In this document: positions 11,759 through 32,769 of the stretch, one piece after another
Position numbering within the stretch: the stretch's first letter is position 1
Layout of the letters: every line of letters starts with the position of its first letter
From: Barthelona sp. PAP020
Taxonomy: Eukaryota
Assembly: GCA_040182905.1 (NCBI GenBank)
Contig: JARQWU010000076.1
Coordinates: forward strand, 1 to 37,367
DNA: 37,367 nucleotides
Direction of reading: 5' to 3'
Made by a program: the position numbers and the translations under genes
The notes under the pieces: model-generated
Database searches by the model: none
What the model was told of the DNA's origin: nothing
What the model saw: only the letters and a program-made list of their open reading frames with translations

Positions 11759-12994
11759 TTAAGCTTTCACACGACGATTCTTTTCAGGGTTTTCGACTAA
11801 TTCGTCAAAGAAATCAGCGACATTTTCAACACGGGATAAAAGAGTAACGGCAGCCATACCATAAAGCTTATGACTGGCTTCTTTGTATGTCTTAACACGA
11901 TGTTCTTCAAAGACATCACCATCAACTTCACCAACAGGACAAGAAACACCAGTGATATCAGCAGGAAGACAATGCATGTAAGTAGCATTGTTGGTCTTTT
12001 CCATTCTTTCACGAGTGCATTGCCAGTCAATATATGTCTTATTGGATTCCAAAGCTTCCTTTTCCAAAGCCTTCATGTCAACCTTACCACCACGATAAGC
12101 TTCGGTTCTCTTTTCCATGATGAACATTGGAGCCCAAGATTTGGGATAAACAACATCAGCATTTTCAAAAGCTTCATCCATGGATGAAGAAACAGTGAAT
12201 TTACCACCGCTCTTTTCAGCATTTTCCTTGGCAACTTCCATAATATGGGGCATCAATTCATATCCATCAGGATGAGCCAAATGAACATCCATTCCGAATC
12301 TGGTCATGAGAGCAATGATGGCTTGAGGAACAGATAAAGGCTTACCATAAGAAGGAGAATAGGCCCAAGTCATGGCAATCTTCTTTCCTTTTAAGTTCTC
12401 AACACCACCAAAATGATCAATCAAATGTAAAAGATCAGCCATAGATTGAGTGGGATGATCTTCATCACATTGAAGATTGATAACAGTGGGACGTTGGTTC
12501 AAAACACCTTCATTGAAACCAGCTTCAACAGCTTCAGCGACTTCAACTTGATACTTGTGTCCTTCACCAATGAACAAATCGTCACGAATTCCAATTAATT
12601 CAGTGAAGAATGAAATCATGTTGGCGGTTTCACGGACGGTTTCACCATGAGCAACTTGAGACTTGGATTCATCCATATCATTAACGGTTAAACCAAGCAT
12701 AGAAGCAGCAGAAGCGAAAGAAAAACGGGTACGAGTGGAGTTATCACGGAAATTGGAAACTGCAAGTCCAGAGTCATAAAGACGAGGAGAAATATTTGCC
12801 TTGTGCAATTCTTCCAAAATTTGAGAAACAGTAGCAATAGCCAGAATATCGTCATCAGACTTATCCCAAGTTCTTAAATAATCAGTTTTAAACATTTCAT
12901 GGTTAAAAGAACGTAACTGAAAAGTTAGAATGTCAAATCATAAACTCTGTGATACTTTGGTAATAAGGTCTTTAATATGAGTGAGATCAGCCAT
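11759..12994 (-). CDS. ygeW: YgeW-family knotted carbamoyltransferase (2 exons: 12994-12956 and 12916-11759; 398 aa)
   Basis: Has FRDNSTRTRFS, GETVRETANMISF, NLQCDEDHPTQSMADL, WAYSPSYGKPLSVPQ, YPKSWAP and YMHCLPADI, all characteristic of YgeW. Splicing a 39-nt GT-AG intron restores the N-terminus MADLTHIKDLITK|LRSFNHEMFKTD. Confidence 0.93.
12917..12955 (-). other. Spliceosomal intron (39 nt, phase 0) in ygeW
   Basis: Minus strand reads GTATCACAGAGTTTATGATTTGACATTCTAACTTTTCAG: GT donor, in-frame TGA, CTAAC branch site 5 nt before the terminal AG. Confidence 0.85.
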
Positions 12995-13350
12995 TGTGGG
13001 TATATATCGATAAAAAGATAAATGGATAAGAATTGGTTTACAGATGTCAAAGTTATTCGTGAATTATCTTTTGATAAAATTTTTTCACATTCTTGACCTT
13101 TCAATACTTTTGAATTGTCGATCAACAAGTTGAAATATTGTTCATGATAAGTATATTTAACCAAAAAATAAAAAGTGCACACTTTTTTATTTGCTCTTTA
13201 TCAATAAGTCAATAATAATGATTTAAGTTGTATTTTATTGATAATTTTTCAAAAAAAAAGAACATTTTCAAAGCTTCTCTCTCTAAGTCAAACGAATCAA
13301 TTCTCAAAAAGTCCTTTCCTTTTCATTTACTTTTTTTTTATTGTGTTTCA
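12995..13350. promoter_or_regulatory. Putative bidirectional promoter shared by ygeW and ygeY
   Basis: 356 bp between two divergent ATGs. Contains 8 GATAA/TTATC motifs and a central palindrome AAAAAGTG-CA-CACTTTTT (13170-13187). Confidence 0.6.
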
Positions 13351-14886
13351 ATGACAAATCTTGATACAAAGATTGCCGAATTAGCAGAAAAATATACTCC
13401 TCTTGCAGCTGAAATTCTACGTGAAGCTATTCGTATTCCCGCTGACACCTATGATGAAAATCTTTCTGGTGGTATGTCCAATAATGAAGGACCTCGTTTG
13501 GAATATTTGAAGAAGCGTATTGTTGAAGTTGGTGCTGTTGCCTCTGCTGAAGATGTTTGGTTTGATGATTTTGGTAATCTTATTTGGAAAGTCATGAACC
13601 CTAATGATGGTGTTGAACCTGAAAAACGTCGTGTTGTTTGGTTTGATGGACATACTGATACTGTTGATCCTCTTCGTGCTCAATGGCAAAAGAAAATTGG
13701 TGGTGGTATCGATTGTTTCAATGGACTTGTCGATCCTGAAAAGGTTGATCAAGAATTCCTTCGTTCTCAATTAGGATATTTACCCCCCAAAGAAGAATGG
13801 GATCAACTTATTTTTGGTCGTGGTAGTGCTGATCAATTGGCTGGTGTCATTGATCAAATTATCGCCACAAAGATTTGTCTTGAATTAATTGAAGAAGGTG
13901 CCCTTGATGGTGTTGTTATCTATAGTATTGGAACTATTGCTGAAGAAGACAATGATGGTGGTGGTCCCATGTTCATCATTCGCAACGATCTTCCTAATCA
14001 TCCTGAAATGGTTCCTGATGTTGTTATTATGACTGAAGGTACCGGAGAAACCAATCTTGGTGCTCTTGGTATTTATCGTGGTCAACGTGGTAGAATGCAA
14101 ATTGAAGTTGAAGTTGTTGGACAATCTGCTCATGGTTCAATGCCTCATATGGGAAAGAACCCTCTTGAATTTGGTGCTCGTATCATTGCTGAAGCTTGTG
14201 ACAAGTTTAATGAAAAGATTGGTATCTTAGACCATGAATTCCTTTCTCAAGGTACTAGAACTGCTTCTTGGTGCAAGATTGACACTCCTTCTGACTGTGC
14301 TGTTCCTGATCGTTTCGTTTTTAGATTTGATAGAAGAATGACTGTTGGAGAATCTCCTGAATTCTGTTTACAACACATTGAACAACTCGATTCTGTCAAG
14401 TTTGCCCGTGAAAATGGTTGTCAAGTCAATATCTCTGTTCCCAGATACAATCTCAATTCTTGGAGAGGTGTTCCTGCTGATAACGACCAAATTTATCTTG
14501 GTTGGGTTACTCCTGAAGAACATCCTTCCATTCAAGTTGCCGTTGATGCATACAAACGTATGATTTCTCCTCATCTTGAAGATTGTATGAACAGAGATAT
14601 TACTGGAAAGACTTATCACATTCCCAAAGAACCCAGAGTTGATCGTTGGATTTTCTCCACTGATGGTGTTGGATATCCCATTCCTAAGGACCAAAAGGAA
14701 GTTAAGGTTACAGATTACAAAAGATGGGTTCAATCTGGTGATTTTATTCATCCTGCAATGCTTGGAATTGGTGCTGGTTGTGAACACAACACTCACAAAA
14801 TTGGTGAATTTGTTGATATGAGAGAAATGCGTCACACCATTGCTTTCATGGCCAGATACCCTTCTTTATTTGTCAGTCAACAATAG
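13351..14886 (+). CDS. ygeY: YgeY-family M20 metallohydrolase (long form, 511 aa)
   Basis: First ATG is at 13351 (the ORF track start at 13228 is TTG). M20 metal-ligand motifs are DGHTDTV, GRGSADQ, AEED, TEG and HNTH. YgeY-type motifs are YRGQRGRM, EFLSQGT, PSDCAVPD, DRRMTVGE and DRWIFSTDGV. Confidence 0.88.
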   Translation: MTNLDTKIAELAEKYTPLAAEILREAIRIPADTYDENLSGGMSNNEGPRLEYLKKRIVEVGAVASAEDVWFDDFGNLIWKVMNPNDGVEPEKRRVVWFDGHTDTVDPLRAQWQKKIGGGIDCFNGLVDPEKVDQEFLRSQLGYLPPKEEWDQLIFGRGSADQLAGVIDQIIATKICLELIEEGALDGVVIYSIGTIAEEDNDGGGPMFIIRNDLPNHPEMVPDVVIMTEGTGETNLGALGIYRGQRGRMQIEVEVVGQSAHGSMPHMGKNPLEFGARIIAEACDKFNEKIGILDHEFLSQGTRTASWCKIDTPSDCAVPDRFVFRFDRRMTVGESPEFCLQHIEQLDSVKFARENGCQVNISVPRYNLNSWRGVPADNDQIYLGWVTPEEHPSIQVAVDAYKRMISPHLEDCMNRDITGKTYHIPKEPRVDRWIFSTDGVGYPIPKDQKEVKVTDYKRWVQSGDFIHPAMLGIGAGCEHNTHKIGEFVDMREMRHTIAFMARYPSLFVSQQ

Positions 14887-15451: not shown

Positions 15452-16597
15452 ATGTCTCATCGTAAGTTTGAAGCACCCCGTCATGGTTCTCTTGGATTTC
15501 TTCCTCGTAAGCGTTGCCGCAGAGTTCGTGGTCGCGTTAAAGCTTTCCCTAAGGATGACAAAGCCCAATCTTGCCATTTAACTGGTTTCATTGGTTTTAA
15601 GGCTGGTATGACTCACGTCGTTCGTGAAATGGACGTTTTAGCTGAAGGTCCTGTTCCTGAATTACTTGATGCCGTCACTATCATTGATTGTCCTCCTATG
15701 ATTGGAATTGGTTTAGTCGGTTATATTGAAACTCCTCGTGGTCTTCGTACTCTCACTACTGTTTGGACCTCCAACTTGGATACTTCCGTCAAGCGTCGTT
15801 TCTATAAGAACTGGTATCGTTCTGAAAACAAGTCTGCTTTCAAGAAGTATACTTCTGAATTCAGTCAAGAAGAAGTTAACCGTAGACTTGGTCTTATTCA
15901 AAAATACGCTACTGTTGTCCGTCTTATTGCTCATACTCAACCTGCCAAGACTCCTCTTGCTGTTAAGTCTGCTCATATTATGGAAATTCAAATCAACGGT
16001 GGTTCTGTTGAAGAAAAGATTGAATTCGGTAAGAACTTGTTCGAAAAGGAAATTCCAATCGACTCTGTCTTTGAAGAAGGTGAATTCATCGATACTATTG
16101 GTATTACCAAGGGTAAGGGTTTCGAAGGTGTCACTACTCGTTGGGGTACTCGTCAATTACCTCGTAAGACTAACAAGGGTCTTCGTAAGGTCGCCTGTAT
16201 TGGTCCCTGGCATCCTGCTCGTGTCAGTTATACTGTTCCTCGTGCTGGTCAAAACGGTTATCATCATCGTACTGAAATCAACAAGCGTATTTATCGTATT
16301 GGAAAGCCTGAAGATTCTGAAAACGCTTCTACTAAGTTCGATATTACCAAGAAACAAATCACACCCATGGGTGGTTTCCCTCATTATGGTTGCATCAACA
16401 ACGATTTCCTTATTCTTAAGGGATGTGTTGCTGGTCCTAAGAAGCGCGCCATTACTCTTCGTAAGTCTATTGTTGCCTTACCTAAGCGTCGTACTAAAGA
16501 ACAAATCATTCTTAAGTTCATCGATACCTCTTCCAAGATGGGTCACGGTAGATTCCAAACTCATGCCGAAAAGGTTAAATTCTACGCTAACCACTAG
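15452..16597 (+). CDS. RPL3: 60S ribosomal protein L3 (uL3)
   Basis: Starts MSHRKFEAPRHGSLGFLPRKR, with GLRKVACIGPWHP, ITPMGGFPHYG and LKFIDTSSKMGHGRFQT. Strong high-expression codon bias. Confidence 0.99.
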   Translation: MSHRKFEAPRHGSLGFLPRKRCRRVRGRVKAFPKDDKAQSCHLTGFIGFKAGMTHVVREMDVLAEGPVPELLDAVTIIDCPPMIGIGLVGYIETPRGLRTLTTVWTSNLDTSVKRRFYKNWYRSENKSAFKKYTSEFSQEEVNRRLGLIQKYATVVRLIAHTQPAKTPLAVKSAHIMEIQINGGSVEEKIEFGKNLFEKEIPIDSVFEEGEFIDTIGITKGKGFEGVTTRWGTRQLPRKTNKGLRKVACIGPWHPARVSYTVPRAGQNGYHHRTEINKRIYRIGKPEDSENASTKFDITKKQITPMGGFPHYGCINNDFLILKGCVAGPKKRAITLRKSIVALPKRRTKEQIILKFIDTSSKMGHGRFQTHAEKVKFYANH

Positions 16598-22414: not shown

Positions 22415-22730
22415 GTTTGAGTTTTCGTATGAAAGTGTTGAGTTTTTTCCTAACTTTCCCAGCACTCTTCATATTTTAAACTAAAAACATGATTATAAAA
22501 AATCAGTTTGCTGGTTCCAAAATTTCCAGCTTCATTTGTGTGCTCAAAGTAATCTCTATTCTGATATCAAGTTATCAAACATTATCAGTGAGGTTAGAAC
22601 ATACAGTTATATAATAGTTTATAAGACTTTAAGTATGGAGACACTGTTTCCAATCAGAATTATCTTAATTCGGAACACAAAGAAAGAACGTGAATTTGTT
22701 TGATTGATAAATGAGATCAAGTAAACAATT

Positions 22731-31728: not shown

Positions 31729-32769
31729 ATGAGATATTTCAGTTTACTACTTGTTAGTTTAATTGTTTTAAACTTTGTATTTGCATTGGATTGTCCCAAA
31801 GCTCCTTCTTTCCCAGGAGATCGTAGATCTCAACATTCTCGTTTACGTGTTGCTCAATTTAACGTTCAATTTTTATTCGATGGAAAGGGAGTACATTCTT
31901 TCAAGTGTCCAGGACAATGTGATTGGACCAGTCAAGCTGAAGCCCAGAAACATATCTCAGCTGTTGCTAAAACTATTGAAACCTTTGATGCTGATATCAT
32001 TCATTTAGCTGAAGTTGAAGATTGTTCTGTTTTAAGTTCTGTATTATCTCAAATGTCCAATGGAGATCAATATCGTCCTTATTTAATTCAAGGTAGTGAC
32101 ACTTATTTGGGACAAAACGTTGCTTTATTAACTCGTATTGATCCTGTCAAGGACTTAGATCGTGTTAGTGATCAAGGAACTTATCCTCTTTCTGGTTCTA
32201 AATGTGGTTGGACTAAGTCTGGAGGAACTACTTTATCAAAGAATTTATTGGCTGCTTTTGAAATTCCTCATCCTTCTGGTTCATTTACTTTAGATCTTGC
32301 TGGTGTTCATTTTATTGCTCATCCTGATGATAAGAAAAATTGTGCCAAGAGAGAAGCTCAATCACTTTTGTTGGGTCGTGCTGTTTCTCGTACTTTTAAG
32401 AGTGATTATGCTGTCATTCTTGGAGATTTTAATGATTATGATGATGCCATTCCTGACTCTTTAGGAATGACTTCTATTGGTCAAACCAGCAAGATTTTGA
32501 AGGATCTTGGATTTAGTGCTGCTATGGCTAAGGTTGAACAGTCTGAACGTTGGTCTTCATTCTGGAACAGAAATCATGATGGAAAGGATTGTGGATTTAA
32601 CTGTCATTCTCAAATTGATCACATTTTGTATAAGAAAAATATGGAAACTGCTGTTCAAAAAGTTTTTTATGACCACAATCATGCTGCTGGAAGAGGTACT
32701 TATGTTAGTGATCATTGGGCCGTTTTGATTGATTTTGACGCAGATAAGTTATCCCAAATGGCAAACTAA
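31729..32769 (+). CDS. Secreted endonuclease/exonuclease/phosphatase (EEP, DNase I-like) family protein
   Basis: First ATG at 31729 gives a signal peptide MRYFSLLLVSLIVLNFVFA. EEP motifs are QFNV, LAEVED, GVHF, LGDFND, QIDHIL and VSDH. Confidence 0.88.
   Translation: MRYFSLLLVSLIVLNFVFALDCPKAPSFPGDRRSQHSRLRVAQFNVQFLFDGKGVHSFKCPGQCDWTSQAEAQKHISAVAKTIETFDADIIHLAEVEDCSVLSSVLSQMSNGDQYRPYLIQGSDTYLGQNVALLTRIDPVKDLDRVSDQGTYPLSGSKCGWTKSGGTTLSKNLLAAFEIPHPSGSFTLDLAGVHFIAHPDDKKNCAKREAQSLLLGRAVSRTFKSDYAVILGDFNDYDDAIPDSLGMTSIGQTSKILKDLGFSAAMAKVEQSERWSSFWNRNHDGKDCGFNCHSQIDHILYKKNMETAVQKVFYDHNHAAGRGTYVSDHWAVLIDFDADKLSQMAN

Follow-up and report, generated by a model that had tools for sequence, protein, structure and literature searches.

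A head-to-head ygeW and long-ygeY gene pair in the metamonad Barthelona sp. PAP020, and a possible eukaryotic version of anaerobic purine breakdown

Why should an anaerobic protist carry, side by side, two genes that resemble those of bacterial urate breakdown, and what might it do with them? The question is raised by Barthelona sp. PAP020, a free-living anaerobic metamonad, in whose contig JARQWU010000076.1 (assembly GCA_040182905.1; positions 1 to 37,367, this whole stretch of 37,367 nucleotides being called the window below) a ygeW gene lies head-to-head with a gene for an M20 metallo-amidohydrolase, here called long YgeY. The bacterial YgeW acts on 2,3-diureidopropanoate, from which it removes one ureido group, and together with carbamate kinase it provides ATP; YgeY takes off the second ureido group, and YgeX yields pyruvate (10.1101/2025.04.24.650524; PMC12507026; the two sources disagree on which ureido group is removed first). 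Our answer, which leans on homology, is that the two proteins would probably catalyze the final pair of ureido cleavages in a reductive purine breakdown of the 2,8-dioxopurine type, which the protist is predicted to run itself.

Does the pair belong to the protist at all? Both are genuine, transcribed nuclear genes of a barthelonid metamonad. The ygeW intron holds an in-frame stop and, near its 3' end, a CTAAC branch-point-like motif; removing these 39 nucleotides is the sole combination of ATG, GT and AG found that yields P0121, a EukProt transcript-derived protein of PAP020, with which the spliced frame of 398 residues agrees letter for letter. The exact match between the spliced frame and P0121 testifies directly to nuclear integration and transcription. 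An earlier examination of the bare letters, the sequence-only reading, had called ygeW intact, which it is, but had overlooked the intron and begun the gene at 12895 in place of 12994. Long YgeY in the window is identical to the PAP020 transcript protein P0001 at 510 of 511 residues. That reading also placed both intact genes head-to-head among eukaryotic neighbors, and the frames bear it out, as do Pfam matches across the window (RPL3, Rpb7, Tcp10/SAS-4 C-terminus, GDI family, WD40, SH3-PH and PTH2). The RPL3-like codon usage it described is likewise real, with a codon adaptation index of 0.61 for ygeW and 0.63 for ygeY against 0.26-0.55 for 15 other window genes; since the reference set is one gene, RPL3, the index is only a rough proxy for expression.

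By its profile scores, the minus-strand gene is a true YgeW, as had been proposed. Its product exceeds both curated NCBIfam cut-offs, with 609 bits for PRK07200 (cut-off 453) and 604 bits for TIGR03316 (cut-off 500), and stands apart from ordinary ornithine transcarbamylase (OTC), whose profiles it matches far below their cut-offs (TIGR00658, 131 of 281 bits; PRK00779, 123 of 306 bits). It is 56% identical to E. coli YgeW over 394 aa, the carbamoyl-phosphate motifs are conserved (STRT at 73, HPTQ at 167, HCLP at 328), and its best PDB matches by sequence are 2yfk and 3q98. Six named metamonad proteins likewise exceed the YgeW cut-offs.

The plus-strand gene had been called ygeY, and here the name fits only in part. 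YgeY is the top family among 19 NCBIfam matches, and H101, D103, D161, E198, E199, E229 and H482 align to metal or catalytic positions of E. coli YgeY, roles that we assume from what is known of the M20 family. The protein is not a canonical YgeY, however: it scores 196 of 321 bits with PRK13004 and 173 of 321.5 bits with TIGR03526, and shares 28% identity with E. coli YgeY, beside which it has several insertions and is 511 against 403 residues long. Bacterial long forms also fall below the YgeY cut-off. The separation from ordinary ArgE/DapE holds (TIGR01910, 65 bits against a cut-off of 218), the predicted model has a DapE/ArgE fold (pLDDT 88), and a PDB search gave no close relative. The protein belongs to a subfamily of about 510 residues with many environmental members near 60% identity, and by these comparisons the gene represents a sister subfamily of YgeY. 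Atlas look-ups returned M20 and pyridoxal phosphate (PLP) cluster names only, with no range among protists.

Two unusual forms of long YgeY may be mentioned. The JGI record P0345 (889 aa) joins a long YgeY to a basic, targeting-peptide-like N-terminal extension and a C-terminal alpha/beta-hydrolase domain, and may be a gene-calling fusion. A divergent group (P0349, P0352, P0354, P0356, P0359, P0362, P0372, P0408) counts a Tritrichomonas foetus protein among its members; it carries a hydrophobic extension at the N-terminus and no longer has the metal ligands, and from these features it is likely a membrane-anchored pseudoenzyme.

What company does long YgeY keep in bacteria? We fetched 81 loci and excluded 8 with short YgeY, leaving 73 long-YgeY loci, many of them short: one bacterial genome bin and 72 metagenome contigs, the metagenome loci being the best 80 of 557 from 13 of 64 parts scanned. 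Two of the 73, L042 and L044, are eukaryotic-transcript-like. A ygeW-type gene is present in 47 of the 73, directly upstream in 42 and on the opposite strand in none. Other neighbors are a xanthine-dehydrogenase-type gene (29/73), ygfK (28/73), ssnA (22/73), carbamate kinase (20/73), cysK-like and thrC-like PLP enzymes (16/73 and 11/73) and hydantoinase (4/73). Short YgeY occurs in none of the 73, and E. coli YgeX as query found no match in any of them. These gene neighbors argue that in urate clusters the long form takes the place of YgeY.

When did the genes enter the eukaryotes? The sequence-only reading envisaged lateral acquisition by this one protist, a view that the distribution does not support: the genes are common to barthelonids, Skoliomonas and Preaxostyla and, by published orthogroups, to parabasalids and fornicates as well, so that the pair represents old metamonad genes rather than one protist's recent gain. 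In a quick-search tree of long YgeY, thinned at 68% from 199 rows to 41, all six named eukaryotic rows and eight unnamed rows fall into one clade (SH-aLRT 99), within which barthelonids and Skoliomonas group at 96 and, with Trimastix, at 95. The tree for YgeW was built from 52 of 263 rows (thinned at 73%, with two odd-length rows removed beforehand); it places the window protein with Skoliomonas (83) and recovers a Preaxostyla clade (100). When 12 YgeW rows were constrained to stay together, the likelihood rose by 11 units and p-AU was 0.66, so that a single clade is not rejected. The sequence-only reading had proposed to look for other protist homologues and to test for a single donor; such homologues exist, and neither tree points to a donor lineage.

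Is the head-to-head arrangement itself old? Divergent orientation occurs in 4 of the 17 adjacent gene pairs in the window and is common by itself; that two pathway partners should be adjacent is unlikely by chance. The proposal that the two are held as a head-to-head unit fares poorly in relatives, since ygeW and long ygeY lie far apart by locus tag, on the presumption that tags follow gene order, in all five compared (RCL1_004001/004417; P9112_003104/002893; MONOS_603 vs 1296/4780; BLNAU_3580/10628 vs 15628; PAPYR_676/7431), and the pairing in PAP020 therefore appears local. Either the pair is what an inversion left of an ancestral linkage, or the two genes have come together again. E. coli ygeW and ygeY are indeed co-directional, as the sequence-only reading had it. 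An ENA record, P0344 (963 aa), has YgeW fused to long YgeY, with the motifs of protist YgeW and a C-terminal half that belongs to the eukaryotic clade. When 11 E. coli cluster proteins were compared with the window by tblastn, matches came to ygeW and ygeY only, so that the cluster here consists of two genes. The 356-bp spacer between them is a possible shared promoter.

How widely is the pair distributed? Searches for eukaryotic homologues listed the best 120-150 matches. Named long YgeYs among the matches listed come from Skoliomonas TZLM3-RCL and TZLM1-RC, Barthelona PCE, Trimastix marina and, in divergent form, Tritrichomonas foetus; named YgeWs among them come from three Skoliomonas isolates, Blattamonas (two), Monocercomonoides and Paratrimastix. 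The isolates entered as 'Eukaryota sp.' we take to be Skoliomonas. A broader view comes from the searchable part of the PMC10703272 supplement, which covers 19 metamonads, barthelonids not among them. There the long YgeY orthogroup q2001380, labeled peptidase, has members in 17 of 19 taxa and includes Trimastix_PCT|538 (P0005); a lone automatic label 'YgeY family' exists, for PaPyr7431. The YgeW orthogroup q2001822, labeled ornithine transcarbamylase, has members in 13 of 19 taxa and includes MONOS_603 (P0243), whereas true OTC forms a separate orthogroup (16/19), which Giardia and Spironucleus, both without YgeW, retain. Candidate partners in the same tables are an SsnA-labeled group (16/19), carbamate kinase (17/19), YqeB (8/19), a PLP 'subunit beta'/cysteine synthase that we call cysK-like (14/19), a thrC-like threonine synthase (14/19), two xanthine dehydrogenases (XDH-1, 16/19; XDH-2, 13/19), dihydropyrimidine dehydrogenase (DPD, 14/19) and two dihydropyrimidinase groups (9/19 and 10/19; 15/19 together). 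The presence profile of the thrC-like group agrees with that of YgeW in 18 of 19 taxa, and that of XDH-2 in 17. The cysK-like orthogroup bears the label under which the atlas lists the enzyme of the bacterial clusters, and the metamonad threonine synthases have bacterial best hits; each of these is a match of names. The search for further pathway genes that had been suggested thus brought up candidates in relatives, by label, including carbamate kinase, but no ygeX or ygfK label.

The candidate groups also go missing together. With groups of at least nine taxa, and with one 44-row block counted by eye as controls, 9 of 9 candidate groups and 2 of 14 control groups are absent from both Giardia and Spironucleus (Fisher p 7e-5, a value that takes no account of relatedness or function). 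Of the nine candidate groups, 8 occur in Chilomastix caulleryi, against 3 of the 14 controls, a pattern that would fit abundant transcripts in a shallow data set. PMC3596361 reports 1486 reads for a Paratrimastix pyriformis 'OTC' against 640 for the kinase; this 'OTC' is probably the YgeW gene of that organism (AGH33869.1).

Three observations from the same supplement touch these proteins. T. marina is present in the YgeW group and missing from the OTC group q2001360, so that YgeW may underlie the arginine deiminase pathway described as 'complete' in that species. Mitochondrial targeting signals are predicted for P. pyriformis YgeW (PAPYR_676) and T. marina carbamate kinase. Another orthogroup, q2002000, has a pathway-like distribution, being absent in Giardia and Spironucleus, and could be a further pathway component.

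What pathway might these parts compose? By homology, YgeW would split one ureido group from 2,3-diureidopropanoate in a phosphate-dependent reaction, giving carbamoyl phosphate from which carbamate kinase would form ATP, and long YgeY would hydrolyze the other ureido group to leave 2,3-diaminopropanoate. For the remaining steps we go by labels and shared distribution: a cysteine-synthase-like PLP enzyme, a threonine-synthase-like one, or both, would replace YgeX in forming pyruvate; SsnA and dihydropyrimidinase would open the rings; a DPD paralogue may stand in place of YgfK, as the PydA-like UacX does in C. difficile (PMC12507026); and the second xanthine dehydrogenase would reduce urate. Other enzymes probably take the places of YgeX and YgfK, since the searchable metamonad tables hold no such labels. 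The cytosol is the likely site, since no mitochondrial-type presequence is evident on the window proteins, whose N-termini are acidic. The lower genes were most likely already in the metamonad ancestor, having come from an environmental anaerobe with a long-YgeY cluster, and would later have been scattered, fused once, or left adjacent as in PAP020. More tentatively, and with rather less confidence than we have in the roles of the pair, we suggest that the last common ancestor of metamonads could ferment purines anaerobically all the way to pyruvate, ammonia and ATP, by a hybrid pathway that joined bacterial lower genes (YgeW, long YgeY, SsnA, the two PLP enzymes and YqeB) to repurposed eukaryotic XDH and DPD paralogues, and that this pathway may persist, highly expressed and mislabeled, in free-living flagellates, in gut oxymonads and possibly in Trichomonas vaginalis.

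Several facts weigh against these proposals. The catalytic roles of all the eukaryotic proteins, and of every long YgeY, are predictions from homology. The upper, redox steps are the weak point of a full pathway: the metamonad XDHs and DPDs have eukaryotic best hits; mammalian xanthine oxidoreductase differs from the urate reductase and does not carry out the DOPDH reaction described; YqeB is patchy; and the searchable metamonad annotations hold no ygfK, selenate or diaminopropionate label. All partner orthogroups other than YgeW and long YgeY are tied to bacterial families by labels or best-hit names, and the partner genes, carbamate kinase included, are known from relatives and only predicted for PAP020. 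Giardia and Spironucleus shed metabolic genes generally, and the control groups were not function-matched. P0349 of T. foetus has no metal ligands, so that parabasalid entries may be inactive. The free YgeW trees, fast and quick, do not recover a single metamonad clade. Finally, the bacterial long YgeYs are partnered by the canonical, protist-like YgeW in only 9 of 47 loci; in the other 38 (L001:8688-9845 and 37 more) the partner is a divergent YgeW-like transcarbamylase that scores 379 bits, below the cut-off of 453, and forms its own clade, which speaks against a simple one-operon donor.

Might the protist run less than the whole pathway? In a truncated version, the pair would act on the same ureido compounds, but these would be taken from bacterial prey or neighbors, and the organism's own XDHs and DPD would serve in ordinary roles. 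In its favor are the eukaryote-type best hits of the upstream redox enzymes, the lack of a ygfK label in the searchable annotations, the presence of YqeB in just 8 of 19 taxa, and the holding by Kipferlia of just 2 of the 9 candidate groups. We nevertheless consider this version unlikely: SsnA-labeled proteins, the second XDH and YqeB are found in the same taxa, the XDH-2 profile follows that of YgeW, and the reductase step and the activity of SsnA are coupled (PMC12507026).

The same low standing goes to a pyrimidine route, in which DPD and dihydropyrimidinase would make N-carbamoyl-beta-alanine from uracil and the pair would finish it, YgeW by phosphorolysis to carbamoyl phosphate or long YgeY by hydrolysis. 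M20-family ureidopropionases exist, and the large insertions of long YgeY could alter its specificity. The metamonad DPD is annotated as pyrimidine catabolism, and beta-ureidopropionase seems to be missing, since the searchable annotations hold no 'ureido' or 'nitrilase' label. One ureido-cleaving enzyme would suffice for such a route, however, and SsnA, the two PLP enzymes, XDH-2 and YqeB would go unexplained; moreover, bacterial long YgeY is located in purine clusters, and the YgeW-YgeY fusion suits two serial steps.

Could the existing annotations simply be right, so that YgeW would serve the arginine deiminase pathway as a second OTC, and the M20 protein would be a peptidase or deacetylase unrelated to it? 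The source labels of the Blattamonas and Paratrimastix proteins do read ornithine transcarbamylase, and T. marina would have its only OTC in the YgeW group, yet this is very improbable, given scores far below the OTC cut-offs and above those for YgeW, and given a true OTC group that persists in Giardia and Spironucleus while YgeW does not. Bacterial contamination or a chimeric assembly can practically be dismissed: the closest unnamed homologues are bacterial-looking, at about 60-66% identity, but the intron is spliced as the transcript protein confirms, codon usage is host-like, and both proteins cluster with Skoliomonas proteins in the trees. We return, then, to a purine breakdown run by the protist itself as the reading we favor.

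Positions of the two genes and of the features around them in the window
Feature	Position	Strand	Description
ygeW, exon 1	12956..12994	-	13 codons, ATG at 12994; spliced frame equals P0121
ygeW, intron	12917..12955	-	39 nt, phase 0, GT...AG, spliceosomal; removed in the transcript protein
ygeW, exon 2	11759..12916	-	YgeW of the knotted carbamoyltransferase family, 398 aa in all
Spacer	12995..13350	.	356 bp, AT-rich, about 24% GC, separating both ATGs
Long YgeY-like M20 metallo-amidohydrolase	13351..14886	+	511 aa, intron-free; by NCBIfam matches and alignment
RPL3	15452..16597	+	Pfam PF00297; eukaryotic flank and codon reference, outside the system

Some further features of the window deserve a word. 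A central inverted repeat in the spacer (13165-13192) is at chance level, being equaled in 20 of 100 shuffles. A second intron candidate, a 36-nt motif at 22427-22462 just past the WD40 stop, restored no long coding frame. Scans of the window with bacterial models, which are inapplicable to a eukaryote, gave 14 sigma-70 promoters against 14.8 expected and no terminator. RPL3 is short (381 aa), its exact sequence is without a match in the protein collection searched, and it seems to be without a segment around residue 60 that is usually conserved. At 31729-32769 lies a signal-peptide-like EEP-family nuclease with a weak ExeM/NucH match and a codon adaptation index of 0.55; as a speculation, such a secreted nuclease could supply purines.

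What would a protist purine fermentation mean? We found no report of a YgeW/YgeY pathway in protists or other eukaryotes in the open-access literature. The accessible text of PMC11316075 has no purine, arginine or carbam- terms, five of its six supplements have no pathway term, and what could be searched of PMC12483993 gave no pathway-term match. The reductive urate pathway, solved in 2025, is called restricted to selected anaerobic bacteria (PMC12990295), and the Monocercomonoides exilis genome is said to lack purine catabolism (PMC6759080), in contrast to which it encodes members of both the YgeW and the long YgeY orthogroups. ATP in PAP020 is said to depend on cytosolic acetyl-CoA synthetases (10.1101/805762). 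If the proposal is true, it would make this the first reductive urate pathway in a eukaryote and would set a second carbamate-kinase route to ATP beside that from arginine, with an extra ATP source and a probable electron sink for mitochondrion-reduced eukaryotes. Labels of 'OTC', 'cysteine synthase' and 'threonine synthase' in metabolic reconstructions would be corrected, and gut and termite flagellates would become candidate urate recyclers. Culturable protist hosts would also serve for study of the uncharacterized long YgeY and the PLP pair.

How, finally, does the pair compare with known systems? With the bacterial YgeW/YgeY urate pathway it shares a true YgeW with its active-site motifs, an M20 hydrolase nearest YgeY, and the predicted coupling of carbamoyl phosphate to ATP. 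It differs in that the genes are eukaryotic, intron-bearing and divergent in order, and in its long YgeY; in metamonad relatives the genes are dispersed, the upstream enzymes are apparently of eukaryote type, and the searchable annotations carry no ygeX or ygfK label. In the environmental, uncharacterized long-YgeY clusters (L001-L073), the long hydrolase is 52-62% identical to the window protein, and their two PLP labels recur as orthogroups in the relatives of PAP020; these clusters are co-directional and mostly have the divergent YgeW, whereas the window pair is head-to-head with a canonical YgeW. The DapE/ArgE M20A hydrolases (PDB 7uoi, 4o23, 7rsf) have the fold and the di-metal ligand set in common with long YgeY, which at 12-16% identity is far under their family cut-offs and lies in another gene context. 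The metamonad arginine deiminase pathway (arginine deiminase, OTC and carbamate kinase; PMC5052871) likewise couples a catabolic transcarbamylase to carbamate kinase and so makes ATP at the substrate level; the kinase is probably common to the two routes. YgeW is set apart from that pathway by its knotted family, its own orthogroup and a different predicted substrate, and by its absence from Giardia and Spironucleus, where the OTC and carbamate kinase of the arginine deiminase pathway remain.

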